The position numbers were made by a program, and so were the translations under genes. A stretch of 64,000 nucleotides of DNA, taken from contig CAWFPG010000009.1 of assembly GCA_963817715.1 (NCBI GenBank), forward strand, positions 117,574 through 181,573. The letters are read 5' to 3'. Origin of the DNA: an uncultured Gemmatimonadales bacterium. GTDB taxonomy: Bacteria; Gemmatimonadota; Gemmatimonadetes; Gemmatimonadales; GWC2-71-9. Under the pieces are notes generated by a model. The model did not search any database. It was not told the origin of the DNA and was given only the letters and a program-made list of their open reading frames with translations. This document shows, one piece after another, positions 3 through 56,107 of the stretch. Position 1 is the stretch's first letter. The number at the start of each line of letters is the position of its first letter.

Positions 3-731
3 CCCGACCCCGCTGCCTGGCAATCCAAGGCCCCCCAGGACTTCGTCACCGTGGTCGATCGCACCGCCGAGGCGATGATCAGCGAGAGTCTCGGCCGGGC
101 GGTGCCCGACAGCCGGGTCCTCGGCGAGGAGGGCAGCCCGACCCTGGCCGATCTCGCCGGACTGGTCTGGGTGGTCGATCCGCTCGATGGCACCACCAAT
201 TTCCTGCACGGCTACCCGATGTGGGCCGTCTCGATCGGCGCCGCGATCGATGGCGAGCTGGTGGCCGGCTGCGTGTTCGATGTCCCGTCGATGCGGCGCG
301 CCACGGCGTGGCGCGGCGGTGGCACCTGGTGCAACGGCACCCGGGCGCGGGTCTCGACCATCGCAGAGCCATCGCGCGCGCTGCTCGCCACCGGCTTCCC
401 GTTCAAGCATCCCGACCAGCTGGCGGCATTCCTGGCGCAGTTCGCCAGGGTGCTTCCCTCGACCAGCGGCGTGCGCCGTGGCGGCGCCGCCGCGATCGAC
501 CTGCTCGACCTCGCCCTGGGCCATCTCGATGCCTTCTGGGAACTGCGGTTGGCTCCCTGGGACACCGCAGCGGGCATCGTGCTGGTGCGCGAGGCCGGTG
601 GGGTGGTCACCCGGCTCGACGGGACGCCGCTGGGCGTGGAGCACGCCGCGGTGGTCGCCGGCAACCCGGCGATGCACGCGTGGCTGCTGGACATGATGGA
701 CGAGATACGAGATACGAGATACGAGACATGA
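3..731 (+). CDS. inositol monophosphatase family protein, 5' end cut by window edge
   Basis: ORF 51..731 has IMPase motifs WVVDPLDGTTNFLHG and WDTAAGIVLVREAGG. The same frame is open back to nt 3 (KAPQDFVTVVDRTAE), so the start lies upstream of the window. The last codons (DEIRDTRYET) and the stop are encoded by the heptamer repeat at 701-742. Confidence 0.85.
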   Translation, partial: PDPAAWQSKAPQDFVTVVDRTAEAMISESLGRAVPDSRVLGEEGSPTLADLAGLVWVVDPLDGTTNFLHGYPMWAVSIGAAIDGELVAGCVFDVPSMRRATAWRGGGTWCNGTRARVSTIAEPSRALLATGFPFKHPDQLAAFLAQFARVLPSTSGVRRGGAAAIDLLDLALGHLDAFWELRLAPWDTAAGIVLVREAGGVVTRLDGTPLGVEHAAVVAGNPAMHAWLLDMMDEIRDTRYET

Positions 732-822
732 GAGACGAGAGACGTGATCATCAGGAGGGCCGGCTCCCGCAGCGGGATGCCGGCCGTACAAACGTCCATC
801 GTATCTCGTATCTCGTATCTCG
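701..822. repeat. inverted repeat with tandem-heptamer arms (unit CGAGATA)
   Basis: 701-742 is cgagata x3 followed by cgagaca tgagaga cgagaga. 799-822 is the perfect reverse complement of 701-724 (24/24). The 74-nt spacer holds a nested ggccggc...gccggcc stem. It lies between the convergent IMPase and map stop codons. Confidence 0.9.
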
Positions 823-2156: not shown

Positions 2157-2209
2157 GTTCGCAAACGGCGAACGGCGAACGGCGAGAGGAATCCGCACCG
2201 TTCGCCGTG
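2157..2209. repeat. heptamer-arm hairpin (unit AACGGCG) in the secY-adk spacer
   Basis: aacggcg x3 at 2164-2184. The complementary caccgttcgccgtg at 2196-2209 pairs with about 11 nt of the array. Confidence 0.75.
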
Positions 2210-2233
2210 TACCGATCGCCGTGGCCGGTTGGC

Positions 2234-12837: not shown

Positions 12838-14040
<1,203 letters not shown>

Positions 14041-16516: not shown

Positions 16517-16987
16517 CTACCAGCGATAGTGTGCAAACGCGCGGTTGGCCTCGGCCATCCGGTGCGTGTCTTCCTTCTTCTTGATGGTGCTGCCCTCGCC
16601 CTTGCTGGCCAGGATCAGCTCCGCCGCCAGCCGCTCGGCCATCGTCTTTTCACCGCGCGCCCGGGCGAACGAGATCAGCCAGCGCATCGCCAGCGCGGTG
16701 CGCCGCTCGGGCCGCACCTCGACCGGCACCTGCAGCGAGGCGCCGCCGACCCGGCGGCTCTTCACCTCGACCGCCGGCTTGACGTTGTTCACCGCCTGCT
16801 TGAAGACCGCCACCCCGGCCTGGCCGGTGCGCTCCTCGATCAGGTCCATCGCCCGGTAGAAGATCGCTTCCGCCAGCGACTTCTTGCCCTGATACATCAG
16901 GTTGCTGACGAACTTCGACACCGTCTGCGAGTCGTAGCGCGGATCCGGCGGCACTACCCGCTTCACCGCCCGCGTGCGGCGGCTCAC
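16517..16987 (-). CDS. rpsG: 30S ribosomal protein S7 (uS7)
   Basis: 156 aa ending ...[15 protein letters not shown]. 4-nt overlap with rpsL. Confidence 0.96.
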
Positions 16988-17367
16988 TGGCCACTCGCCT
17001 TGGGCCGCTTGGCCCCGTACTTCGACCGGCTCTGGCGACGGTCATTCACCCCGGCGGCGTCGAGCGCCCCGCGGAGAATGTGATACCGCACCCCGGGGAG
17101 GTCCTTCACCCGGCCACCGCGAATCAGCACGATGGAGTGCTCCTGGAGATTGTGCCCCTCGCCCGGGATGTAGGCGATGACCTCGATCCCGTTGACGAGC
17201 CGCACCTTGGCCACCTTGCGCAGCGCCGAGTTCGGCTTCTTCGGCGTGGTGGTGTACACGCGAGTGCAGACCCCCCGCTTCTGCGGGTTGGCCTTCAGGT
17301 GTGGCGACTTCCCCTTGAACTTCGGGGCCGTACGGCCGTGGCGCAGCAGCTGGTTGATCGTCGGCAT
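16984..17367 (-). CDS. rpsL: 30S ribosomal protein S12 (uS12)
   Basis: 127 aa from ATG 17367 ([12 protein letters not shown]...[10 protein letters not shown]). Confidence 0.96.
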
Positions 17368-17432: not shown

Positions 17433-17461
17433 ATGATACCGGGGCATCGGCCGGGGGTCAA
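17433..17461 (-). promoter_or_regulatory. sigma70-type promoter candidate for the rpsL-rpsG-fusA-tuf operon
   Basis: Minus strand reads TTGACC, then a 17-nt spacer, then TATCAT, about 66 nt upstream of the rpsL ATG. This AT-containing motif stands out in GC-rich sequence. Confidence 0.6.
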
Positions 17462-17647
17462 GCGGCAGGAAGCGACAGGCGACAAGCGACCCGCGACAGG
17501 AGGATCGGGACCAGCACGGATCGGCCGCCCAAGTTCCACTATGAAACCAAACATCACTGCGCCGCTCGCCTGTCGCCTGTCGCCTGTCGCCCGTCGCCCG
17601 TCGCCTGTCGCCGGTCGCCTGTCGCCTGTCGCCTGTCGCCTGTCGCC
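17462..17647. repeat. asymmetric heptamer-arm inverted repeat (unit GCGACAG / CTGTCGC)
   Basis: Left arm 17472-17499 is gcgacag gcgacaa gcgaccc gcgacag. Right arm 17571-17647 is 11 units of tgtcgcc, with variants cgtcgcc and ggtcgcc. About 70-nt spacer. It sits between the terminator at 17655-17681 and the rpsL promoter. Confidence 0.9.
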
Positions 17648-17654
17648 CCCCAAG

Positions 17655-17681
17655 CAAAACAGCGCCCCCACCCGGGAGCGC
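17655..17681 (-). terminator. intrinsic terminator after the accessory lipoprotein pair
   Basis: Minus strand reads GCGCUCCC-GGGU-GGGGGCGC (8-bp stem with one G.U pair) followed by UGUUUUG, 24 nt after the stop at 17705. Confidence 0.65.
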
Positions 17682-17704
17682 CGTCCGCTGCTCCCTGTTC
17701 TGGG

Positions 17705-18635
17705 TCAGCCCCAGTCCAGCACCCAGGTGAGCGGGCTACCCTCCGGCAGCGCCCGCCACATCGCACCATCCGAGAAGCGATAGAACCAGACACCGTCGAC
17801 CATGTACGACCCTTCCAGGGCTACCGAAGGACGCCTCCACGCCAAGATCTTCCCATCGGGCGAGAACGCCGGCAGGATCCCGCGGAGCTGGGTCGGGTAG
17901 CCGGGCGCCGCGGCGCCATCGAGCGTAATGAACCGCAGCTCGCCGGTGTGGGTGTTGTAGGCGATCGTCCGCCCGTCCGGCGAGAGGTCCAGCGTCTGCG
18001 ATCATTTCCAGCGTGGTGGTGGGCTCGGTGATCGGCGTGATCAACCCCGAGGCCAGGTCGTAGTGGACGATCTGCACCACGTTGATGTCGAAGAGCTGCC
18101 GATCATCCCGCTCTGATCCGGCAACCAGCGCAGGTAGACGGGTGCCCAGTCCGGGTGGTCGTCCGGCGCGACCCACCGCACCACCGGTGCCGCCGTGCCG
18201 CCGAGCTCGACCGTGGCCAGCACGAGCGCGAGGTCCCGCCCAGCCCGCAGCGCCGAAGATCAGCGTCCTGCCGTCGGGGGCCACCACACTGGACGCAGGC
18301 GAGCACGTCATCGACGACGGTGGTGATCATCCCGGACGCGAGATCGAGCCGGCGGATGCCGGGTGCGGACTGCAGCACCCCGGAGCCACCACCGATCACC
18401 GTGGCGGCATCCTTGCCGAAGACTGCCGAGACCCAAAGGAAGGGCTCGCCGTAGCGCGACAGCTCGCGGGACTCGCCGGTGGCCACGTCGACGACATGCA
18501 CCGTACCGGTGGGGTCGTAGACCAGCAGCGATCCCGGTCGGCTCCGCCGGCACGGACGGTCCGGTTCCCGGATCGCTGCCACAGGCGACGATCGCGAGCA
18601 GCGACCAGGCCGATGAGCGGATGGCGGCTGCTCAT
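17705..18635 (-). pseudogene. TolB/WD40-like beta-propeller lipoprotein with about 6 frame changes (pseudogene or indel-laden CDS)
   Basis: ATG 18635 overlaps the upstream stop (ATGA). Conserved-looking segments jump between frames in this order: MSSRHPLIGL; SLLAIVACGSDPG (lipobox); GSLLVYDPTGTVHVVDVATGESREL; APDGRTLIFGAAG; LATVELGGTAAPVVRWVAPDD; LFDINVVQIVHYDLASG; LDLSPDGRTIAYNTHTGELRFITLDG..FSPDGKILAW..VLDWG*. Length is 931 nt (3n+1). Confidence 0.55.
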
Positions 18636-20019
18636 TGCTGCTCCGGCGGGCAGTTCTCCACGGCATCGGGGCGGATTCCCCCCGGCTTCCCCGACAAGGC
18701 GAAGTTCTCGGAGCCGCCCCCCGTGCAGACCGGGATCTGCTGCTCGTGCCAGCCCGCTGGCAGGTACGTATGGGTCCAACCGGACGGCCAGGGAGACAAG
18801 CCGACGCGGAAGATCAGCGTGTAGGACCCCGCGTCGACCCCGAGCTCGGCGACCTGCCCCGACGTCGAAAAGGTGGTGTCGGGATCGACCGTGGTCGTGC
18901 GGCTGTCGTCGACCCGCCAGTAGACCGTCGACCCCGAGCCGCCGATGTGGGCGGTAAAGGCATGCGATCCGGGTGTCACGATCGGGCTCTCATCCGCCGT
19001 CACCGCGTAGAGCAGGGGCGGTTCCGGCACCGTCACGATGGTCGAGACGCCGGTGCTCACGAATGGATGCGCAAACAGGTAGGTGCTGGATCCAGTCGGC
19101 TTGGCCCGGATCGTCGCCGTGCCGGGTGCCACGGCCGTGACGACTCCGCCGGTGAAGGTCACGGTGGCCACGGCAGTGTTGGTGCTGCTCCACGTGTAGC
19201 TGCTCGCCGTGCCGGGCACGGTCGCACCGCCCTCCAGGCGCCAATCCCCCGGTGACGGACTGGCCCTCTGCCCGACCGGAAGGGTGAATGGCGCCATTCC
19301 GCCCTGCGTACCGACGACGAAGGGCTTGTCGAAGAAATGTTCCGGGTCGTAGCTGACCAGACCGTAGGCCGCCAAGGCACCCTCGATCTCGTGGGCACAG
19401 ATGACGGTGTTGAGCGAATGATCTTCCGGCAGGTGCATGACGCAGTGGTCGGCCATGGCCGTCGCGAAGTAGAGCTTGTGCACGCCGCTCCCCGTCCAGC
19501 CCACCGCGTGACCAACCTCGTGGCGCAGCACTGCCGAGAGCAGGCCGCCGTTGCTGTAGTTGGCACAACCGGCGTCCGCGAACACCTCGAGCAACCGGGT
19601 GTCGTTGTGCCACTGGCCGCAAAAGGCAGCTTCCGGTCGGCAGTCCCGGTGACCGTGGCCTCGGCCGAGGAGGGACGTTCGTCGTGGTGAAGGTCGGCAG
19701 GGCGCCGAAGCCGGTGGCGGCCAGCTTCGCCTGCCACTCCGCCACCGCCGATCCTGCTGACGGGGCAAGGGATGGGTTGCTGGTGTAGAACTCCACGGTT
19801 GCATTGCAGTTCCAGCCATCCACGGCGCGGAACCCCGTGAAGATCCCCGGACTGCAGACCATGGCGAACGCCGGCTCCGACGCCCTGGTGGCCGCGTCCC
19901 GCTCGAGCGGAACGGCGGTTGGCGAGTCAGCGCATCCGAAGGCGAGAATGGCTGCCGCGACGGTCAGTATCCCCGACCCGTGGCGGTGCGGCGGTGCGGC
20001 GGTGCGAACGAATGGACAT
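18632..20019 (-). pseudogene. HExxH zinc-metalloprotease-like lipoprotein with Big_2-like Ig domain, about 3 frame changes
   Basis: ATG 20019 follows GGAGGT. Signal peptide MSIRSHRRTAAPPRVG / ILTVAAAILAFGCADSP is broken at the GGGG run (19971-19974). Further breaks lie near 19671 and 19615 (T-run). The main frame, ORF 18632..19819, has LRHEVGHAVGW and TWSSTNTAVATVTFTGGVVTAVAPGTATIRA. Length is 1388 nt (3n+2). Confidence 0.55.
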
Positions 20020-20226
20020 ATGACCTCCGGGGGAAAGGTGGGACTGCCACTGCAAAGCTCGGCCCTGGACTCACCCGCGTCAAGAACTGGCGACCCTTCT
20101 CGTATCAGCCCCCGGTGGAGAGGGCTCGACCGTCATCGTGATCAGCTCGTCAATCGACAACCCAGGTGCCCACCCGTTCAGCGGGGCACTCCAAGGCAAG
20201 TCAGGTCCCCCGTCCTCCCGCCAACG

Positions 20227-20257
20227 CAAAACGGCGGCCCCGTCCGGGACCGCCGTC
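20227..20257 (-). terminator. intrinsic terminator after rpoC
   Basis: Minus strand reads GACGGCGGUCCCGGACGGGGCCGCCGUUUUG: stem ACGGCGG/CCGCCGU plus inner CCCG/CGGG, then a U4 run. About 25 nt after the rpoC stop at 20280. Confidence 0.7.
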
Positions 20258-20279
20258 TGCCACCACGCTGGGGTCTGGC

Positions 20280-24840
<4,561 letters not shown>

Positions 24841-24844
24841 CGCT

Positions 24845-29317
<4,473 letters not shown>

Positions 29318-29350
29318 GTGCTGGGTCCCGGTACAAGGGAACACGGCGAC

Positions 29351-31637: not shown

Positions 31638-31686
31638 GTCGATCGTCGATGGCTGATGGTCGATCGACCATCGACCATCGACCGTC
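31638..31686. repeat. heptamer-built palindrome (unit GTCGATG / CATCGAC), nusG-rplK spacer
   Basis: Reads gtcgatc gtcgatg gctgatg gtcgatc | gaccatc gaccatc gaccgtc. About 38 nt of near-perfect palindrome centred on ggtcgatcgacc. Starts 4 nt after the nusG stop. Confidence 0.85.
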
Positions 31687-32495: not shown

Positions 32496-32556
32496 CACCA
32501 TCGCGATGGTGGTCGATGGTCAATGGTCCTTGGTCGATCGACCATCGACCATCGAC

Positions 32557-32557
<1 letters not shown>
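32496..32557. repeat. heptamer-built palindromes (same GGTCGAT / ATCGACC unit as 31638-31686), tuf-secE spacer
   Basis: caccatcgcgatggtg is a perfect 16-nt palindrome (32496-32511). It is followed by ggtcgat ggtcaat ggtcctt ggtcgat | cgaccat cgaccat cgacc, ending at the tuf stop codon. Confidence 0.85.
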
Positions 32558-33759
<1,202 letters not shown>

Positions 33760-33811: not shown

Positions 33812-33874
33812 GTGAGTCCTGAGAGTGCTTCGCGCGGCGTCGCCGGGCGACTGCGATCTCAGGACTCAGGACTC
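33812..33874. repeat. heptamer-arm hairpin (unit AGTCCTG / CAGGACT), tRNA-tuf spacer
   Basis: gtgagtcctgaga (33812-33824) pairs with tctcaggactcaggactc (33857-33874). The loop contains gtcgcc-g-ggcgac. Confidence 0.75.
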
Positions 33875-33898
33875 CATCCCTCACTTCTGCTCCCACAG

Positions 33899-33971
<73 letters not shown>

Positions 33972-38148: not shown

Positions 38149-38192
38149 GATCCCTCGACCTCGGTCGCTCCGCGGCCTCCGCTCGGGATGAC
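38149..38192 (-). repeat. REP-like hairpin element, copy 3
   Basis: Minus strand reads GTCATCCCGAGCGGAGGCCGCGGAGCGACCGAGGTCGAGGGATC. Confidence 0.65.
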
Positions 38193-38200
38193 GGTCGATC

Positions 38201-38228
38201 GCCCGTCGCCCGTCGCCCGTCGCCTGTC
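38201..38228. repeat. direct heptamer array GCCCGTC x3 + GCCTGTC
   Basis: Four tandem units immediately after the stop (38234) of the GWxTD-like gene. Same unit family as 17571-17647. No inverted partner is nearby. Confidence 0.8.
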
Positions 38229-38233
38229 GCGCC

Positions 38234-40515
38234 TCACCGGACCAGCAGCCTCGCCGACCGTCGCGCCTCGGCGCCGGTCGCCGTGTCGGTCACCGTCAGT
38301 TCCAGGCGGTACTCGCCCTTGTCGAGCGTGTCGATGCCCAGCTCGCGCTGCAACTCGTTGATCCCGGCCGTGAGTGGCCCGGTGAACGCCACCTCGATCG
38401 CCGGCTTCTCGCCCCGCGCCCCCACCTCATAGAGCGCCACCCGCGTGGACACCTCCTCTCGCGCGGTGGTGCTCCGCACCTGCCAGTAGAGCGCCATCGG
38501 TTCCTGGCGGTCGAAGGTGCCGAGCGGGGCGAGCGGCACCACCTTGCCGGACGTGGTGGTCCAGTGCTGCCTTGCGACGGTGCGCCGAGGATCAGGTCGG
38601 AGAGCCGGAGCGCGTCGGCGCCCAGGGCCGGCTTGTCGTCTTCCCAGGCACGACCCCGTCGATCGTCGCCCTGCTGGGCGATCAGTGACCAGGCACTCAC
38701 CCCGGTGGAGGTCGGGGTGACCAGGTAGCCCGTCAGGTGCGACGACTTGCGCAGCTTGTCGGGCAACCGCAGCCGGCGGATCACGTCGGTCGCCTGCCAG
38801 CTCACCTTGACCGGGTCCCATTGGCGCAGGGTGAGGGCGATCGTGGCGGTGATGCCGGTCGAGTCGTCGGTGCGCTCCACGTCGCCGACCTTGATCGCGT
38901 AGGGGATCACGGCGAGTGGGGCGCCGGTTCGGGGATCCCAGATGCGTGAGAGCTGCGCGACGACCGAGATCGGATGCTCGACCCGGACTGAGTTGTCGTC
39001 CTTGGTAGTGGCCTCGCGGATGATGTTCTCATCCTCGAACCGCAGTTCGGCAACCTTCTCGAGCGGAAGGCCCATGCTGGAGGAGCGGTTGGTCAACCGG
39101 CATCGGTAAGAATCAACGTCGCAGAGATACTGGCCGAGGACCCCAGCCACCAGCCGAGTCGCGCCCACCGACCCGTCGAATTGCTCGCCTTCGAAGTTCA
39201 GAAGGAGATGCGCCCCGTCGACCTGGTATGCCCATGCCTCTCGGACATTCGTGTGCGTGCCCAACGGATGACAGAGGTTGAGCGAGAAGTCGTTGGCGCT
39301 GCCGCCACCAAAGCCGGTGGTGTCACCGGAATCACACCGCCCGGCCGATCTGCGGGCCGACGGAAGCGAAATCGAGCCCGACCAAGGAATTCGGCTGGTC
39401 GGTGCTCCCCAGCGCATCCAGACCTCAGCGCGATCGTCGTATCGCGGATGAGTGCGCCGAAAGTAGCGAAATGCTTGCGCGGGAATCACCGCCGGATTCC
39501 CCCAGCCGGCAACCCAGCCATCACCAAGGTCGTTGTCTGGCATCGCGGCGACCGCGAACCGACCAAGGCTGCGCACTGGGACGTCTGTCCGGAAACTCGA
39601 ATCGACCACGGTCAGCCGTTCGAAGTGTTCCGCCATCCTGCTCCCCGGGGCTCGTCCATCGCGCACGTCGCGCGACGCGAAGCGATCGCGCACCCAGGCG
39701 GCGCGCGCCGAATCCGGCAGCCCGCGCCACGCCGCCTCCTCGTCGGGCTCCAGGAACCAGCGCAGGTGCCAGCCGACCTCGCTCCAAGCCGTCGAGTCAT
39801 GGGCGGCGGCGAGCGCACCGTTGAACAACTGCTGACCCGACGTGGTGTCGGCCGCATCGAATGCCGCCCACGCGAGCTGCAGCAGCTGCCAGGTGGAGTC
39901 GACGCCGGCGTCGAGCGCCGCTCGGGCACAGCGCAGCTCCGCAGCACGATCACCGCTGCGCCGAGACAGCTCGGTGCAGCCGCGCAGTGCCCTGGCGCCT
40001 CGCACGCCACCGTCGACTGCCGCGACCAGTGCGGCCGTGGCCCGCTCCCGCTCCGGCGGGACGTTCTCGTCGAGCATCAATTCGCCGAGCAGCTCGGCGG
40101 CCTGATCGTGCGCCGGGTCGCGATCGAGCGCCTCGAGCAGCGACCGGATCGCGCCCTTGTGCCACGAGTCGCCGAGGACCATCAGCGGGCCGGCGTGGGC
40201 GATCGCCTGGGCCGAGTAGAGCAGCGCCCGGGCACAACCGAGGCGCAACCAGGTCGTGGCGTCGGCACCGTTCACGGTGGCCGCGATGCGTCGTTCGCCG
40301 GCCAGCAGCGCCGAGCGGTCGTCGGGATGGTCGCTGGGACAGGCGGTGTGGATCCGGGCATCGGCCGCCGCGATCATGGCGCGGAGGTCAGGCATGCCGG
40401 ATTCGCCAGACTGGGCGGCGAGGGGGGCGAGTGCCCCGGCTATCGCCGTCGCCAGCATCAGCCGCGCCGCAAGCGACGCGGCAGCACGCCATTCGGCGGA
40501 GGGCGATCGCCTCAT
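38234..40515 (-). CDS. GWxTD-like domain secreted protein (paralog B), reading frame broken once
   Basis: ATG 40515 (MRRSPSAEWRAAASLAARLMLATAIAGALAPLAAQSG, a signal peptide) overlaps the upstream stop as ATGA. ORF 38296..41019 carries ...HPRYDDRAEVWMRWGAPTS (a WxxDRG..Y.YG.PD-like GWxTD core). The C-terminus continues in ORF 38234..38821 (HWTTTSGKVVPLAPLG...RSARLLVR). The break is near 38565-38572. Length is 2282 nt (3n+2). Confidence 0.7.
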
Positions 40516-43500
40516 CGCAGCAGGAGCCGCGCCGACCGCCGCGCCTCGGCGCCGGTCAGCAGGTCGCGCACCACCAGCTCGATGCGGTACGCGCCAGCGT
40601 CGAGTCGGTCCACGCCGATCTCGCGCTGGACCTCGTTGAGCCCGGCGCCGAGGCGGCCGCCGAAGGCGACCTCGAAGGCGGGTTCCTCGCGCCGCACGCC
40701 GACCTTGTGGAGCGCCACCGTGGTGCGGACACTGTCGTGCACCGCGCGAGTGCGCACCTGCCAGTACACGGAGACCGGCTCGGTCCGGGAGAACGCCCCG
40801 AGCGGCGCCAGCGCCACGTGGCCGCCGGTGGTGGTGGGCCAGGCGTGCCCCTGCGACGCCGCGCCCAGGACCAGGTCGGAGAGCCGGAACGCGCCGTCGC
40901 CGATCAGGACCAGCGAGTCGGCCCAGGCCCGGCCGCGATGGGCGGTGTCCTGCACTGCCACCAGCGACCAGGCGCTCACGTCGGGGGTCGACGGGATCAC
41001 CACGAAGCTGGTGAGCCACGACTTGTCATCGGGCGTGCCGCGGTAGTGGAGCCGTCGAGTGATCGAGGTGGCGAGCCAGGTCTCGGTGGCACGACTCCAT
41101 TGCCGCAGCGTCAGTTCGAACTCGGCCGAGACGCCGGTGGAGTCGGGGGTGAGGACCAGGTCGCCGGCGCGGAAGGCGTAGGGGATCACCGCCAGCGGGG
41201 CGCCGGTCGCCGGGTCCCACACTCGCGACAGATGCGCCTCGGTCGTGATCGGGTGGCTGACGCGGACAGCGTTGTCGTCGGTGGTGGTGGCGATGGCAAT
41301 GTCCGCCTTGTCCTCGGTGCGGAGCGTCTCGAGACGTTCGGGTGAGATGGGGCTCCATTGAGGGTTTGATGGATCACAGCCGCCTGGGAGGTCCCAACAA
41401 CTCAACCGCATCGTGAGCTGGCACCTCGCATTGTCAATGCTGCAGAGATAGTGGCCCAGGACTCCCGCAACGAGACGGTTGGGCTCCGGGGATCCATCGA
41501 ACGACTCGCCCTCGAAGTTCAGGATGATCCGGCGATCACCATAGTCGTACAACCAGACGGCTCGCGTGTTGTAGCCTCCCCTGGCGTCCTTCCAGAACAC
41601 CGACTTGTCCGGCTTGCCGAACCGCAACCAGACCGCGCCCCGATCATCAAACCAGGGACTCCATGGCCGGAAGAACCGGTACGGCTGGGCAGCGATCGAT
41701 TCCGGCAGGGCCGTGAATCGGATATCGTCCGGGTCCGAAGGCCTCCCGATCGGATCAGCTTCGGGAACCGCTGCCAGCGCCATCCGACCCCGCTGTTTCC
41801 GCGGCATGTCGCGGAGGAAGTGCTCCTCGGCGTAGTCGAGCCGGTTGAAGTGCTTCACCAGCCGGCTGCCGGGGCGTCGGCCGTCGCGGATGTCGCGCCG
41901 CGCCAGCTCGTCGCGCACGAACGGGCCACGGACCGAGTCGGGAATCTCCTGCCACGCTTCCCACTCACCGGGTTCCAGGAACCACCGCAGCTGCCAGCCG
42001 ACCTCGGCCCAGTCGCTGGGCTGGTGGGCGGCGGCCATCGCGGCGTCGAGCAGCGAGGCGACGGTGGCGGTGTCGGCGCTCCGCGAGGCGAGCCGCGCGA
42101 GGTGGAGCAACTGCCAGGTCGAATCGCCCCCGGCCTCGAGTCCGATGATGGTGCAGCGATTCGACGCCGCCAGCTCGCCCATCCGGAGCGAGAGGAGCGC
42201 GCAGCCGCGCACCGCCGCCGGCGCGGTCACCCCGCCAGTCACGGCCCGGGCCAGCGCGTCGCGCACGGCCCTCCCCTCCTTCGGCTCGGCCTGGTCGAGC
42301 GCCACCACCGCGAGCACCTCGGCGGCGCGACTCGACCGGTGATCGAGCTCCAGGGCGCTCAGCAGCGACCGGGTGGCTCCCGTCTGCCAGCTGGTGCCGA
42401 GCGGCATCTGAAGCCCCTCGCGCGCGATCGCCCCGTCGAGGTCGAGCAGCGCCCGGGTGCAGCCGAGGTCGAGCCAATCGCTGGCCAATGCGCCAGCCTT
42501 GGCGTCGCGGGCGGCGAGGACCCGTTCCTCGGCGAGCAGCGACGTCCGGTCGAGCCCGCTCCGGTCGGGACATCCGGCGGCGAGCGCGTCGTGCAGGTGC
42601 GAGATGTCGGTGAGTGAATCGGGTGGTGCGAGGGTGGCGCGCGGGATCGTGAAGACCAGCGGCCGGGTCATGCCGGTGCCAGTCGGCGGTGACCGGCTCG
42701 AGACGCCGCCGGGCTGGGCGGAGAGCAACCGACCATCTCGCTCGTCGATCCCCATCGCGCGCCCGGTCCGGTCGCTCTGGATCGGGGCGAAGATCCGCCA
42801 GGTCATCGGAAGCCAGAGTCCCGACGGCAGCGGTGCAAAAGTCAACTCCCCGCCCGCCACACCATTGCGGAGATGATCGGGGAGATTCCGGTGTTCGAAG
42901 GTGAGTCGCTTGAGCGCCAGCGTCTTCGGATCAAGGAGCATTGTGCCGGCGATGTCGACCAGCTTCCCCTTCTTCGCCGGCTCGAAGACCAGCCTGATGC
43001 CCGTCGAGTCCTGGGGACCCGTGGCGAGATGAAAGCAGTGCGACTGCAGGAACCAGTCGGCCGAAAGGACACTCACGTCGGGGCCGTACCAGACGCGGCC
43101 CTGCTGGAAGTTGACCAGTCCCTCGGCCATGAAGCCGACCCGACGGAGCGAGTCGGGGTCGACCGCCTGAATCGGCCAGGCGACCATGGCGCCGCGGGTG
43201 GTGTCGGCGGTGATGATCGAGTCGCCGCGGCCGGCAAGCGCGGTGCGATGCACCGCCTCGATCCGGAAGCCGCCGCTGCCTTCGAGGGTGGCGGCCATCA
43301 CGTCGAGTGAGGTCCGCGCGCCGTCGAGGAGCCTGGTGAGCACCGACGACTCACCGCCGAGCGACCCGCACTTCCCGGCGTCGCCGAGCACCTGGAGGTC
43401 GCGCAGGGTCACGACAGCCGGCTGCATGGCGACATCGACCAGGCGAACATCACCCTGCACGTCGAAGAGCGGCAGTTGTTGCGGGGAGTAGCCGATCGCG

Positions 43501-43999: not shown

Positions 44000-45535
44000 A
44001 TGCAGCGACGCGACTTCCTGGAACTGACCCGGAACGCGGCCCTGGCGGCCACGATCCCCACCATCTGGCGGGTGCGGCACCGCCCTCACTTCGCCGATGA
44101 CCCCTTCACCCTCGGCATCGCCTCGGGCGACCCGACGCCCGAATCGGTGATGCTCTGGACCCGGCTCGCCCCGAAGCCGCTGGAGCCCGGCTACGGCATG
44201 GACCGGGTGAGGACGGCGGTGAGCTGGGAGGTGGCCCACGACGAGAGGTTCAGCAACGTGGTGCAGCAGGGGCGCGCCACAGCGGCCCCCGAGCTGGGCC
44301 ATGCCGTCCACGCCGACGTGCAGGGGCTCGAGCCAGATCGCTGGTACTTCTACAGGTTCCACAGCGGCGACGCCGTGAGCGCGGTGGGTCGCGCCCGCAC
44401 CGCCCCGGCGCTCGACGCCGAGTCGCCGCTCCGGTTCGCGGTGGCCAGCTGCCAGTACTACGAGTCGGGCTACTACACGGCCTACCAGCACATGGCCGAG
44501 GAGGAGCTCGACCTGATCACTCACCTGGGCGACTACATCTACGAGTACAGCGCCCACGACGGCGACGTGCGCCGCCATGCCAACAACGAGGTGATCACCC
44601 TGGAGGACTACCGGATCCGCTACGCGCAGTACAAGAGCGACCGGCACCTGCAGGCAGCCCACGCCCGCTGTCCCTGGCTGGTCACCTGGGACGATCACGA
44701 GGTCGACAACAACTACGCCGGCCTGATCGGCGAGAACGGGATGGAGTCGGAGGAGCAGATGCGGGCCCGCCGCGCCGCGGCGTATCAGGCGTGGTGGGAA
44801 CACCAGCCGGTGCGCGTCGACCGGGCGATCTCGTGGAGCGACCTGTCGATCACCCGGAACGTCCCCTGGGGTGGCCTGGCCGACTTCTGGATGCTCGACA
44901 CCCGCCAGTTCCGCTCCGACCAGGCCTGCGGCGACGGCAGCAAGGTGGTGCCCTGCGGCGACTGGAACGCCGCCGACCGCACCATGCTCGGCGATGTGCA
45001 GGAGCGCTGGCTGGTGAACGGACTCGGCAACAGCCGGGCCCACTGGCAGGTGCTCGCCAACCAGGTGATGATGGCGCCGTTCGATTCGAAGCCCGGCGAC
45101 GAGCAGCAGCTCTCGATGGACCAGTGGAGCGGCTACCCGGTGGCCCGCGACCGGCTGCTCGGCGCCATCGCCCAGCGCGCACCCAATCGCACCGTGGTGG
45201 TGACCGGCGACATCCACAGCAACTGGGTCAACGAGCTCTGGTCGAGCTTCAACCGCTTCGAGGCGCCGGTGGTGGCGGCTGAGTTCGTGGGCACCAGCAT
45301 CACCTCCGGCGGCGACGGCGCCGACGATTCGGCCACGGTGGAGGCGAACCGCGCCGAGAATCCCCACGTCAAGTGGTTCAACGGACGACGGGGCTACATC
45401 CGCTGCGAGGTGACGCCCGACGCGTGGCGGGCCGACTACCGCACGGTGCCCTACGTGACGCGGCCCGACGCGCCGATCGCCACCGCCAGCAGCTGGCGGG
45501 TGGAGAACGGGGTGGCGGGGATCACGCGGGTGTAG
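44000..45535 (+). CDS. phoD: alkaline phosphatase D family protein with Tat signal
   Basis: 511 aa from ATG 44000. MQRRDFLELTRNAALAA is a twin-arginine signal. PhoD motifs present: FTLGIASGDP, WDDHEVDNNY, VVVTGDIHSNW. Confidence 0.88.
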   Translation: MQRRDFLELTRNAALAATIPTIWRVRHRPHFADDPFTLGIASGDPTPESVMLWTRLAPKPLEPGYGMDRVRTAVSWEVAHDERFSNVVQQGRATAAPELGHAVHADVQGLEPDRWYFYRFHSGDAVSAVGRARTAPALDAESPLRFAVASCQYYESGYYTAYQHMAEEELDLITHLGDYIYEYSAHDGDVRRHANNEVITLEDYRIRYAQYKSDRHLQAAHARCPWLVTWDDHEVDNNYAGLIGENGMESEEQMRARRAAAYQAWWEHQPVRVDRAISWSDLSITRNVPWGGLADFWMLDTRQFRSDQACGDGSKVVPCGDWNAADRTMLGDVQERWLVNGLGNSRAHWQVLANQVMMAPFDSKPGDEQQLSMDQWSGYPVARDRLLGAIAQRAPNRTVVVTGDIHSNWVNELWSSFNRFEAPVVAAEFVGTSITSGGDGADDSATVEANRAENPHVKWFNGRRGYIRCEVTPDAWRADYRTVPYVTRPDAPIATASSWRVENGVAGITRV

Positions 45536-45625
45536 GAGAACGGAGAACGGAGAACGGAGGGCGGAGAACGGAGAACGGAGAACGGAGGGCGGAGAACGGA
45601 GAACGGAGAACAGAGAACGGAGGGG
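45535..45625. repeat. direct tandem heptamer array, 13 units (GGAGAAC; every 4th unit GGAGGGC)
   Basis: Starts on the G of the phoD TAG stop. The pattern (ggagaac x3 + ggagggc) gives a 28-nt super-period. No inverted partner is seen. Confidence 0.92.
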
Positions 45626-45666
45626 ATTCGACTGGCGGCCCTCCGGCGCATGCAGTAGGCTCGGGA

Positions 45667-53295: not shown

Positions 53296-55952
53296 TGGAT
53301 CAGGTGCGCTGGGCCCGGATCGAGGCGCTCTGCGAGGCGGCGCTCGAGCAGCCATCCGGCGAACGAGAGGGCTGGCTCGCCGCGGCATGCGGGGACGACG
53401 CGCTGCTGCTGGCCGAGGTCACCTCACTACTGGAGCAGCTTCGCGCCGACCCCGATTTCCTCGAGCGGCCGGCCGTCGACCTGGGCAGGGCGTCATTGGC
53501 AGCGCCCGGCGGCGGCACACTGCCGACGGCAATCGATCGGTGGCAGATCGTGCGACGGCTCGGTCGCGGCGGGATGGGCGAGGTTTTTCTCGGTGAGTGC
53601 AACGGCGACCAGGTGGCGATCAAGGTCCTGCGCGACGACATCGACTCGGCCGAGATTGTCCGGCGCTTCGCCCTTGAGCAACGGATCCTTGCCACCCTGC
53701 AGCATCCCAACATCGCCAGACTCCTGGAGGCCACGCTCACGGCCGATGGCCGGCCCTGCGTGGTCCTCGAGTACGTGGCCGGGGTGCCGATCACCGCCCA
53801 CGCCGACCTGCGCCGCCTCTCGCTGCGCGACCGCATGGCGCTCGTGATCGCGGTGTGCGGTGCGGTCGAGCACGCCCATCGCAGTCTCGTGGTCCATCGC
53901 GACATCAAGCCCGCCAACATCCTGGTGACCGACGACGGCACGCCGGTGCTGCTCGACTTCGGCATCGGGAAGGTCCTCGACCGGACCGGGATGATGGGCT
54001 CGGTGATCGAGACCAGCGGCACCGACCGCTTGCTGACCCTCGACTATGCCGCACCGGAACAGTTGCGGGGCGAGGTCGTGACCACCGCCACCGACGTGCA
54101 TGCACTTGGCGTGCTCCTGCACGAGCTGCTCACCGGGCTCCATCCCTTCCGGCACGTGGGATCGACTCCGGGCCAGGTCGAGCACGCGATTCTTGAGCAG
54201 GAGCCCGATCGACCGAGCGCGGTGGTCCGCGTGGCCCCGGCGAGCGGCCCGGTCGCCGAGGGCGACGCCCGAGCTCGCGCGGAAGCGCGCGGGTTCGGCA
54301 GCGCCGAGGCGCTCGGCCGTCGCCTCGGCGGCGACATCGACAACATCGTGCTCATGGCGCTCCGCAAGGAGCCGGAGCGACGCTATCCCTCGGTCGCGGC
54401 ACTGGCGGAAGACCTGCGCCGTCACCTCGGGGGCCGGCCGGTTCGCGCCCGGCCGGACACGCTCGGCTACCGCGCCCGCAAGTTCGTGCGCCGCAACGCC
54501 GGGTCGGTCGCAACGGCCACACTCGCGGTGCTGGCGCTGCTGGCCACCACGGGGGCGGCGCTGCGGGCATCGCGCCGTGCCACGCACAACGCCGCCGCAA
54601 CCGAGGCCGAGCGAGACGAGGCAGTTGCGGTCCGCGGTTTCCTGATGGAGATGTTCGGCGCGACGGGTGGCGGCCAGCGGGTCGGCCAGTCGGAAACGGT
54701 GCGGCAGCTGCTCGATCGCCAGGCCGCGCGCATCGACAGTGCGCACGGCGACGACCCGCTTCTGGCGGCGCGCCTCGACGAGGTCGTGGCCGACGCCTAC
54801 GACCGGCTCGGGCTCCCCGATCAGGCGGTGCCGCTCGCCGAGCGCGCACTGGCGCTGCGACGGGCGAACCAGCCGGAGAGCGATCCCCGGGTGACGGGGG
54901 CTGAGAACCTGCTCGGCTGGGTCCTGCACCAGAGCGGGCATGGCGACGAGGCCGAGTCGCACCTGCGCGTTGCCGCAACGCTCGCCCGGACCCACGGCGA
55001 TTCCGGCGCCCTGGCCCATGCACTCAACGATTTGGGGGTGCTGTACAACGCCGCGGGTCGCTATGCCGAGGCCGACTCGACCCTCACCGAGGCGCTGGCG
55101 CTGCGACGCGCCGTCGACGGCGATGGCAACCTCGGCGTGGGGATCACCGCCAACAACCTCGCGGCCGCGTTCTACTATCAGGCCAGGTACGGCGAGGCGG
55201 TTGCCACCCAGCAGGTGGCGCTCGGCGCGCTGCGTGCCAGTGTGGGGAAGGACCACCAGCGCACGGTGATCGCCCGCAGCAACCTGGCCGCGTTCCGGAT
55301 GGCCGACGGCGACTTCATCAGCGCCGAGCGCGACTACCGCGAACTGCTCGCGCAGCAGACCCGCCTGCAGGGCCCCGAGCATCCGGTCACCCGTCGGGTG
55401 GTGCTGGCGCTGACCGCTGCCCTGATCGGGCGGCAGGATGCCGGTCGGCCGGAGGCGCTCCGCGAGGCGGACTCCCTGCTCACCGCCCTGATGGCAATCG
55501 AGGAACGCACCAACGCGACACCGGCCGATCGAGGCTCCACCTTCGACCGCCTTGCCGGGGTGCGATTGGCGCGAGACGACGCCACGAGTGCCCTCGACCT
55601 CGCCCGTCGGGCGGTCGCGACGCTCACCCTGGCGCACGGCCCGCGACATCCCGACGTGGCATCGGCCAGCGGTCGACTCGCGTTGATCGAAGCACGACTC
55701 GGCGACACCCAGTCGGCCATGCGCCACGCGCGCGAGGGGCTGGCCACGCTGGTCGATCGCCTCGGCAGCGATCATCCCGAGACGGCGCGCGGACGCGGCC
55801 GGCTGTGTCGAGTCATGGTTGCGGTCGGGTCGGATTCCGCGAACGCCGCCGACACCTGTGCGGCGGCGATGGCCGGGCTCGAGAATGCGCCCGCCGGCTA
55901 TCGCGGCGAGCTGGCGGAGGTGCGGCGGGTATCAGGCCGCCGAGGGGGATGA
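53295..55952 (+). CDS. Ser/Thr protein kinase with one TM and C-terminal TPR repeats, 885 aa
   Basis: Hanks-type kinase motifs (GRGGMGEVF, VAIKVL, HRDIKPANILV, DFGIGK, APEQ), TM segment AGSVATATLAVLALLATTGAAL, then multiple TPR-like repeats. The last 8 codons lie in repeat 55927-56107. Confidence 0.9.
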   Translation: MDQVRWARIEALCEAALEQPSGEREGWLAAACGDDALLLAEVTSLLEQLRADPDFLERPAVDLGRASLAAPGGGTLPTAIDRWQIVRRLGRGGMGEVFLGECNGDQVAIKVLRDDIDSAEIVRRFALEQRILATLQHPNIARLLEATLTADGRPCVVLEYVAGVPITAHADLRRLSLRDRMALVIAVCGAVEHAHRSLVVHRDIKPANILVTDDGTPVLLDFGIGKVLDRTGMMGSVIETSGTDRLLTLDYAAPEQLRGEVVTTATDVHALGVLLHELLTGLHPFRHVGSTPGQVEHAILEQEPDRPSAVVRVAPASGPVAEGDARARAEARGFGSAEALGRRLGGDIDNIVLMALRKEPERRYPSVAALAEDLRRHLGGRPVRARPDTLGYRARKFVRRNAGSVATATLAVLALLATTGAALRASRRATHNAAATEAERDEAVAVRGFLMEMFGATGGGQRVGQSETVRQLLDRQAARIDSAHGDDPLLAARLDEVVADAYDRLGLPDQAVPLAERALALRRANQPESDPRVTGAENLLGWVLHQSGHGDEAESHLRVAATLARTHGDSGALAHALNDLGVLYNAAGRYAEADSTLTEALALRRAVDGDGNLGVGITANNLAAAFYYQARYGEAVATQQVALGALRASVGKDHQRTVIARSNLAAFRMADGDFISAERDYRELLAQQTRLQGPEHPVTRRVVLALTAALIGRQDAGRPEALREADSLLTALMAIEERTNATPADRGSTFDRLAGVRLARDDATSALDLARRAVATLTLAHGPRHPDVASASGRLALIEARLGDTQSAMRHAREGLATLVDRLGSDHPETARGRGRLCRVMVAVGSDSANAADTCAAAMAGLENAPAGYRGELAEVRRVSGRRGG

Positions 55953-56107
55953 CAGGCTGGTGAAGGGTGGAAGGGTGTCGGATCGTGCTCCCCATTCACC
56001 ATTCACGATTCAGGGTATCAGGCCGCCGAGGGGGATGACAAGCTGGTGAAGGGTGAAGGGGTGTCGGATCGTGCTCCCCATTCACCATTCACGATTCACC
56101 ATTCACC
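55927..56107. repeat. 86-bp tandem duplication, each unit containing a heptamer-arm hairpin (GGTGAAG vs ATTCACC)
   Basis: Unit 1 is 55927-56012 and unit 2 starts at 56013; the period is 86 nt with few differences. Each unit reads ggtgaag ggtg(g/a)aag gg(g)tg - tcggatcgtgc - tcccc attcacc attcacg attca(cc attcacc). Located between convergent genes. Confidence 0.9.

Follow-up and report, generated by a model that had tools for sequence, protein, structure and literature searches.

What are the tandem 7-nucleotide (nt) repeats that lie between the genes of a 64,000-nt stretch of DNA from an uncultured Gemmatimonadales bacterium (GenBank assembly GCA_963817715.1, contig CAWFPG010000009.1, positions 117,574 to 181,573), and why do they so often face their own reverse complement? 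This whole stretch, referred to below as the window, has a G+C content of about 69% and carries ribosomal-protein, str, rpoBC and tuf operons; its genes were mapped by codon usage, and those flanking the repeats were confirmed with Pfam. An original prediction, made from the letters alone, described the repeats at nine intergenic sites (here A to I) and read them either as slippage-prone terminator or insulator hairpins or as the footprint of a process that expands heptamers symmetrically on both arms. Every array was found in the place given there and with the sequence described, and the interpretation as a whole proved partly right. The sites are palindromes following stop codons or a tRNA 3' end, with arms of 1 to 13 tandem 7-nt units. 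We consider it probable, though well short of certain, that they are hypervariable heptanucleotide repeat hairpins, of the kind represented by the 'convergent' pairs of Xanthomonas, in a clade of the Gemmatimonadales, and that they are slippage-prone stem-loops without a U-tract.

Unless stated otherwise, an array is taken to be an exact tandem repeat of at least three copies. By this definition the window contains 11 arrays of period 7, none of period 6, one of period 8 and none of any period from 9 to 15. Simulated 200 times with a first-order Markov model, the window gave a mean of 0.0 heptamer arrays and a maximum of 0, which argues strongly against chance; scores of the window arrays in Tandem Repeats Finder (TRF) ranged up to 143. 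For comparison, relatives of the inositol monophosphatase (IMPase) and methionine aminopeptidase that flank site A were located on Gemmatimonadales loci, 128 of which (numbered with the prefix L) were compared, together with close relatives obtained through exact-protein matches. These loci were split by adenylate kinase identity into clade 1, in which the window falls, and clade 2; the total DNA examined, related and unrelated loci together, came to about 2 Mb. Clade 1 (367 kb) gave 31 arrays of period 7, 7 of period 6 and 2 of period 8, as against 1, 7 and 0 in clade 2 (370 kb) and 0, 9 and 0 in other high-GC loci (408 kb); clade 1 minus the window has 20 heptamer arrays in 303 kb. The excess of heptamer arrays is real, statistically overwhelming and lineage-specific: both in the window and in clade 1 it is found at period 7 only, as the original prediction had supposed, and it is specific to one Gemmatimonadales clade. 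Because two-copy heptamers are barely commoner in clade 1 (72, with 59 in clade 2 and 52 in the other high-GC loci; 1.2 to 1.4-fold), what marks the lineage is that arrays grow, or are kept, past two copies, and this strictly at period 7. The array-rich clade 1 and its array-poor sister clade 2 offer a natural contrast that could be mined for the causal gene.

The sites, with the features next to them, are as follows.

Site A, purine-rich arm, 700..748: ACGAGAT, 3.9 copies, exact at 700-726, then degenerate units to 748; encodes the last IMPase codons and the TGA stop
IMPase gene, 51-731, + strand: TGA stop at 729-731
Site A, inner hairpin, 757..785: GC-rich, non-periodic, GGGCCGGCTCCCGC AGC GGGATGCCGGCC, in the loop of the heptamer stem
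Site A, pyrimidine-rich arm, 799..822: TCGTATC, 3.4 copies, exact reverse complement of 701-724 (24 nt)
Methionine aminopeptidase gene, 824-1576, - strand: stop 2 nt from the pyrimidine-rich arm of site A
Site B, hairpin in the secY-adk operon spacer, 2164..2223: AACGGCG, 3.1 copies (2164-2185), with a partial reverse-complement arm at 2196-2223; starts 11 nt from the secY stop
rpsL, 16984-17367, - strand
Promoter-like site, 17433..17461, - strand: TTGACC-17-TATCAT, 10/12 matches, sigma-70-like, upstream of rpsL
Site C, short arm, 17472..17500: GCGACAG-type, 4 copies, degenerate; directly upstream of the predicted rpsL promoter
Site C, long arm, 17566..17647: TCGCCTG, 11.7 copies, with variants TCGCCCG and TCGCCGG
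Site D, palindrome in the nusG-rplK spacer, 31638..31686: GTCGATN-type units, then ATCGACC, 3 copies; 4 nt from the stop of the upstream gene (31690)
Site E, palindrome in the tuf-secE spacer, 32504..32557: GGTCGAT GGTCAAT GGTCCTT GGTCG, then ATCGACC, 3 copies; abuts the tuf stop
Site F, hairpin, 33812..33874: GAGTCCTGAGAG pairs with CTCAGGA, 2.4 copies (arms 33812-33824 and 33857-33874), around an inner GC hairpin; flanked by the tuf start (33759) and tRNA-Thr (33898-33971)
Site G, in a convergent gap, 38185..38230: purine-rich arm GGGATGACGG (38185-38194) facing TCGCCCG, 4.6 copies (38199-38230); 4 nt from the stop at 38234, with the unit family of site C
Site H, 45535..45645: GGAGAAC, 12.6 copies (45535-45622), beginning in the PhoD stop codon TAG (45533-45535); inverted partners GGAGGGG (45619-45625) and the one-unit CCCTCCG (45639-45645)
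Site I, in a convergent gap, 55927..56107: GGTGAAG-type and CCATTCA arrays (55958-56107) as a hairpin

An inverted partner was found at all nine sites. The arrays of G and H had been put down as direct repeats only, which was mistaken: short inverted partners are present at both, so that all nine sites are associated with a hairpin. The hairpin of site A folded with -75.7 kcal/mol (z = -9.0), and site C folded as DNA gave z = -3.9. Rfam covariance models at the gathering score matched four tRNAs only in the window and nothing at the sites. Site H has in addition a higher-order repeat of 28 nt, [(GGAGAAC)3 GGAGGGC], and at site I the module together with the last 26 nt of the Ser/Thr kinase gene forms an 86-nt tandem duplication (55927-56098, two copies, 96% identical). 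The length of that duplication is not a multiple of 7. The sense strand of site H shows GGAG, which resembles a Shine-Dalgarno sequence, every 7 nt downstream of phoD. Downstream of rpoC the gap contains a period-8 array (GGCGGTGC, 3.1 copies, 19982-20006), for which no inverted partner was seen.

How are the hairpins placed with respect to genes? Intergenic DNA makes up 11.9% of the window on the codon-usage map, and all nine sites lie inside it. A site is present in three of the four convergent gaps and in none of the three divergent gaps, the remaining sites being in co-directional spacers, and at eight of the nine the distance from an arm to a stop codon is 0-15 nt, or that to the 3' end of a tRNA 24 nt. 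Thus the proposed location held for the window sites, which are at the 3' ends of genes, either between convergent genes or in operon spacers. So did the claim that at three of them the upstream gene takes its last codons or its stop from the element, namely IMPase (...DEIRDTRYET-stop), the kinase (...RVSGRRGG-stop) and PhoD (TAG). This overlap with gene 3' ends has a consequence for the IMPase C-terminus, the tail of which is encoded by the array and varies between species (window 701-731; L039 1677-1702; L123 10799-10825; L126 8136-8160); a change of one unit in the site A array would shift the frame of the tail.

Do these positions persist while the repeats change? In the gap orthologous to site A, between map and the IMPase gene, successive relatives have a heptamer hairpin in which the units have changed and the arms are complementary each time. 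The units are given here with the aminopeptidase identity to the window.

Window, 100%: CGAGATA
L039, 92%: CGATAGA
L040, L121 and L122, 88%: CGAGATT/CGCGATT
L123 and L124, 82-83%: GCGAGGG/GCGAAGG
L126 and L127, 83%: GGTCGAT in one arm, ATGGACG-type in the other, 7-10 copies
L001, 77%: GCGAACG

Between L040 and L121 the outer arms of this hairpin are conserved and the loop region is replaced. The secY-adk spacer gave a similar picture, as a strongly folding hairpin starts 0-12 nt after the secY stop in 19 of the 21 clade 1 genomes. At least 14 of these hairpins are 7-periodic, one is 8-periodic (L007, GGTCAGGC) and those of L039, L002 and L043 are non-periodic; two genomes (L022, L038) have no spacer. 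The same architecture is thus present in related genomes at orthologous gaps, with changed units. A 13-nt sequence (CGGGATGCCGGCC) is common to the inner hairpins of window site A (757-785) and of secY-adk in L126 (6518-6550). The shared inner core GGGATGCCGGCC was considered as a dispersed element and rejected, being present among the loci compared only in window site A and the L126 secY-adk hairpin.

Changes in copy number were found between closely related sequences. L126 and L127, from two metagenome samples, are identical over 1597 nt except for one 7-nt array unit, and the GGAGAAC array of site H has 13 copies in the window and about 2.7 in the close relative L128; both observations bear out the suggestion that the arrays are prone to slippage. 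The copy numbers of the two arms are strongly unequal (13:1, 11.7:4 and 6.5:3.4, and 8:1.5 in L126), which contradicts the symmetric expansion on both arms that had been put forward as the alternative origin. The arms gain and lose whole units independently, and the units turn over while complementarity is kept. Short-read assemblers can miscount units, so the difference between L126 and L127 could in principle be an assembly error, and heptamer hairpins probably cause contigs to break and units to be miscounted when metagenomes are assembled. However, dozens of assemblies made independently, with different pipelines and from different samples, gave the same architecture, and the L121 and L122 arrays are identical between assemblies of separate sequencing runs, which argues against an artefact. 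With the simulation result given above, this leaves chance or faulty assembly a negligible probability as the source of the arrays.

The two arms also differ in composition in a regular way. Of 31 inverted pairs in clade 1, 27-28 have the purine- or G-rich arm on the 5' side, a rule that is valid on both strands because the element is an inverted repeat. Periodic hairpins are purine-first by 15:1, and non-periodic inverted repeats at the same loci by 21:16 in clade 1, 23:20 in clade 2 and 32:25 in the other high-GC loci. Viral contigs were scanned with four consensus-type units, both strands being searched, which makes the scan neutral to pair polarity. In the 120 loci obtained, with G+C from 0.35 to 0.72, exact arrays numbered 191 at period 7, 29 at period 6 and 18 at period 8, and 68-69 of their 76 inverted pairs were purine-first. 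One of these contigs (L143, listed in IMG/VR; 10 kb, G+C 0.61) has eighteen period-7 arrays of a single family, CAGTGGY and its complement, and its CAGTGGY hairpins occupy nearly every gap between co-directional open reading frames (ORFs).

Is the heptamer different at each locus, as first described? The units do vary, with at least 6-7 families within the 64 kb of the window, but three pairs of sites share or nearly share theirs: D and E have an identical stretch of 27-28 nt, C and G have TCGCC[C/T]G in common, and the units of B and H are one base apart. Among 42 sites, 74 unit pairs were within one mismatch, where 24 were expected from composition-matched random units (maximum 42). Alignment of the units by best rotation and strand gave A-N-N-G-G-Y-G with 5.51 bits, random units treated by the same procedure giving 4.30 +/- 0.21; the unit-pair and consensus figures are both somewhat inflated by orthologous sites. 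The purine skew of the units is modest (5.13 against 4.59 of 7). The units are thus not independent of one another from locus to locus, as there is a loose consensus and recurrence within and between genomes.

These properties bear on the simplest alternative, that ordinary hairpins gather heptamer slippage because the replisome or repair machinery tolerates 7-nt loops, the arrays being a neutral by-product without function and without specificity of sequence or orientation. This would fit with the finding that only the step to three or more copies is lineage-specific, and with the non-periodic hairpins at the orthologous secY-adk sites of L039, L002 and L043; polymerase-related slippage was in fact proposed for heptamers by Mrazek et al. 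(2007), as summarised in PMC4679880 and PMC4692102. On the other hand, neutral slippage in pre-existing hairpins is contradicted by the polarity, which is 15:1 in periodic and 21:16 in non-periodic hairpins and reaches 68:8 in the unrelated contigs, and by the unit consensus and the surplus of near-identical unit pairs (74 against 24). We therefore regard this explanation as unlikely.

Recurrence of units between sites raises another possibility, namely that a few families of palindromic elements have been dispersed by mobilisation like that of repetitive extragenic palindromic (REP) sequences by RAYT or of MITEs (miniature inverted-repeat transposable elements), or by ectopic gene conversion, with the arrays acting as inward-pointing terminal binding sites. 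Within L001, L009 and L123/L124 the hairpins of map/IMPase and secY-adk, which are neighbouring but not homologous sites, share 15-23 identical nt, compared with a mean of 7.7 between genomes, and unit pairs within one mismatch amount to 20% within a genome, 7% between genomes and 2% for random units. The long match between D and E is of this kind, the window units GGTGAAG and GCGACAG recur at other sites in the distant relative L129, the polarity is fixed, and the single family of L143 fills nearly every gene gap. Against this, the arrays alone are shared, loops and flanks being unrelated; at secY-adk no target-site duplications or conserved termini were seen, the candidate core motif is not dispersed and no transposase was seen in the window, while orthologous sites persist across the whole clade. 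Dispersal of this sort seems to us rather improbable. In L129 the GCGACAG arrays (16913-16944 and 19263-19287) are in opposite orientation, 2.3 kb apart, around one called gene, much as window sites D and E flank nusG-secE; GCGACAG is the unit of window sites C and G.

Could the period and the polarity themselves be the signal? The arrays might then form an oriented multi-site platform for a factor with a 7-nt footprint (a cold-shock protein or an S1-type protein with an OB-fold), or runs of pause-like or Chi-like motifs, the latter pointing at a break-prone palindrome. Tandem ANNGGYG would presumably fit the RNA polymerase pause consensus G-10 / Y-1 / G+1, and we assume that the logic of Chi orientation might be extended to heptamer arrays; both are speculations. 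The polarity rule and the unit consensus favour such a signal, as does the recurrence of period 7 in unrelated lineages (the viral contigs, and those of PMC4692102 and PMC4679880). B. subtilis CspB is reported, in a review as given in PMC4679880, to bind heptamer repeats with one protein per heptamer. However, cold-shock proteins prefer pyrimidine-rich strands and the arm transcribed first is purine-rich, and the units found within a single genome vary too much for a sequence-specific reader such as Chi. The idea is improbable in our view.

G-quadruplex formation, as proposed for the intergenic GGGAATC repeats of Xanthomonas and GGGGAYT repeats of Nostoc (PMC4692102), is still less plausible. 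G-runs do occur in a minority of the related units, such as GGGGCGA (L123/L124) and CAGGGAT (L045), but GGG or CCC is present in no more than 9 of 39 units, cyclic reading included, and those of the window with GGG come down to the CGGGCGA of site G and a few variant copies in C, H and I. These counts effectively refute the G-quadruplex reading for the window, and for the elements in general we give it very little credence.

If the elements are indeed slippage-prone hairpins, what might they do? The most likely role is that of terminator, insulator or mRNA-end protector, to judge from their position and by analogy with the structured 3' ends of GC-rich bacteria that have no U-tract, which account for 353 of 535 in Streptomyces (PMC8269248). 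In such a scheme replication slippage would change the copy number, the transcribed stem-loops would serve as U-tract-less terminators, insulators or protectors of mRNA 3' ends at convergent gene ends and between the cistrons of ribosomal-protein operons, and the length of the array would tune that of the stem. Like the 'I-shaped' U-tract-less terminators (PMC8269248) they are stable 3'-end stem-loops in a high-GC genome, and unlike them they have internal tandem periodicity.

Several observations weigh against this scheme. The argument for a terminator or stabiliser function is one of position: a scan for canonical terminators (a GC stem-loop followed by a U-tract) gave none at the sites, with window matches at or below shuffle expectation, and a U-tract after the hairpin was found at none of them. 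Because no site has a canonical U-tract terminator, the word 'terminator' is here taken from position. At secY-adk the sense strand folded better than the antisense at 12 of 20 sites, with 69 against 58 G-U pairs, and this lack of asymmetry means that constraint at the RNA level and at the DNA level are not separated. Furthermore, slippage in pre-existing hairpins does not predict the polarity of periodic as opposed to non-periodic hairpins, simple slippage does not predict a shared unit consensus, and slippage does not predict the same unit at neighbouring non-homologous sites. One idea for the origin of the polarity, in which a weak RNA:DNA hybrid would let a pyrimidine-rich 3' arm stand in for a U-tract, was rejected. 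It is not relied on because Streptomyces terminators have the opposite G/C polarity; in S. clavuligerus the 5' arm region is enriched for C and the 3' arm region for G.

Any explanation has to meet three regularities: the expansion beyond two copies at strictly period 7, the fixed polarity of paired arrays that is absent from ordinary hairpins, and the loose unit consensus with its recurrence between sites. It is conceivable, although we lean against it, that the arrays are not passive microsatellites and that an oriented, sequence-biased process common to many bacteria and phage-like contigs either produces them or acts on them. In that event, A-N-N-G-G-Y-G motifs pointing to the hairpin centre would imply an unrecognised mechanism that builds and maintains U-tract-less bidirectional terminators or insulators, for which the candidates would be a factor whose footprint is 7 nt, or expansion through R-loops or break repair, and the contrast between clades 1 and 2 would make the gene or genes responsible findable by comparative genomics. 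An over-representation of heptamers in some bacteria has been known since 2007; the literature, as represented in the later summaries, offers a slippage hypothesis only, one paper noting that there was no detailed work on such repeats at the time.

How do the elements compare with known repeats? The closest known case is that of the convergent GGGAATC heptamer pairs of Xanthomonas, where there are about 185 arrays per genome, 70-75 of them as close inverted pairs 'in convergent orientation', conserved in position and variable in length between species (Rehm et al. 2015, PMC4692102). As in Xanthomonas and Nostoc, the 7-nt units are in tandem, intergenic and near gene ends, with position kept and length and sequence varying; those repeats are transcribed in either direction (PMC4692102). 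The close inverted pairs able to form stem-loops are shared with Xanthomonas, Nostoc having only few of them, and the Xanthomonas pairs have the same polarity as those of clade 1. In contrast, Xanthomonas has one G-tract consensus unit per genome (GGGANTN), whereas the window has its several families around a loose ANNGGYG with few G-tracts, and Xanthomonas belongs to another phylum than Gemmatimonadota. The architecture is therefore not new as such, paired inverted heptamer arrays having been described in Xanthomonas; in the literature searched, no report of such heptamer hairpins in Gemmatimonadota was found.

The elements also resemble the long simple sequence repeats (SSRs, units of 5-11 nt), among which heptanucleotides are over-represented in some bacteria (Mrazek, Guo & Shah 2007, as cited in PMC4679880 and PMC4692102). 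Heptamer dominance, intergenic location, sporadic occurrence across lineages and a proposed origin by slippage are common to both, and the arrays described here have the length beyond chance, the period-7 and intergenic excess and the whole-unit copy-number polymorphism of that class. The long SSRs differ in being direct tandem repeats, and the summaries given in those two papers mention neither hairpin pairing nor polarity.

The cyanobacterial short tandemly repeated repetitive (STRR) sequences, the TAACTGA repeats of Beggiatoaceae and the (GATAGRA)n of Chloroflexus are likewise lineage-specific intergenic tandem heptamers, but they have one or few fixed units per genome and are mostly direct; Beggiatoa has 169 direct sets and one inverted set, often upstream of start codons and not after stops. 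REP/BIME elements, like the heptamer hairpins, are imperfect palindromes that occupy operon spacers and convergent gene ends, and REPs are known to stabilise upstream mRNA and attenuate transcription. Their sequence is conserved genome-wide and they are mobilised by RAYT, whereas here the arms are tandem repeats and only the 7-nt arrays recur; a conserved palindrome of 20-40 nt is not present, as loops and flanks are unrelated between sites. Neither target-site duplications nor defined ends, as expected of a MITE, were found at secY-adk across 21 genomes, and in place of CRISPR repeats of 23-50 nt with unique spacers the window sites have contiguous 7-nt units without unique spacers. The original prediction was right to set the elements apart from all three classes.

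Some further features of the window were noted. About 1 kb at 17650-18631 is without a confident gene; the overlapping minus-strand ORFs 17736-18311 and 18103-18666 may be pieces of one frameshifted gene or a pseudogene, and Pfam gave no match for ORF 17736-18311 (-) or for ORF 18082-18957 (+). Another stretch of about 2 kb (38543-40511) is without a gene by codon usage, and the long ORF 38296-41019 (-, 907 aa) had no match in Pfam. The rpoC-like ORF 20080-24840 (-) of 1586 aa and the rpoB-like ORF 24845-29344 (-) of 1499 aa were identified by operon position, and their unusual length suggests lineage-specific insertions. Finally, the two copies of tuf (12838-14040 and 32557-33759, both -) have 99.4% nucleotide identity, with 7 of 1203 nt and 1 amino acid different, and look like a case of tufA/tufB-type gene conversion. 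Heptamer site E follows the second copy; the hairpin after the first is non-periodic. The differences between the copies cluster at the 3' end, beside the heptamer hairpin.

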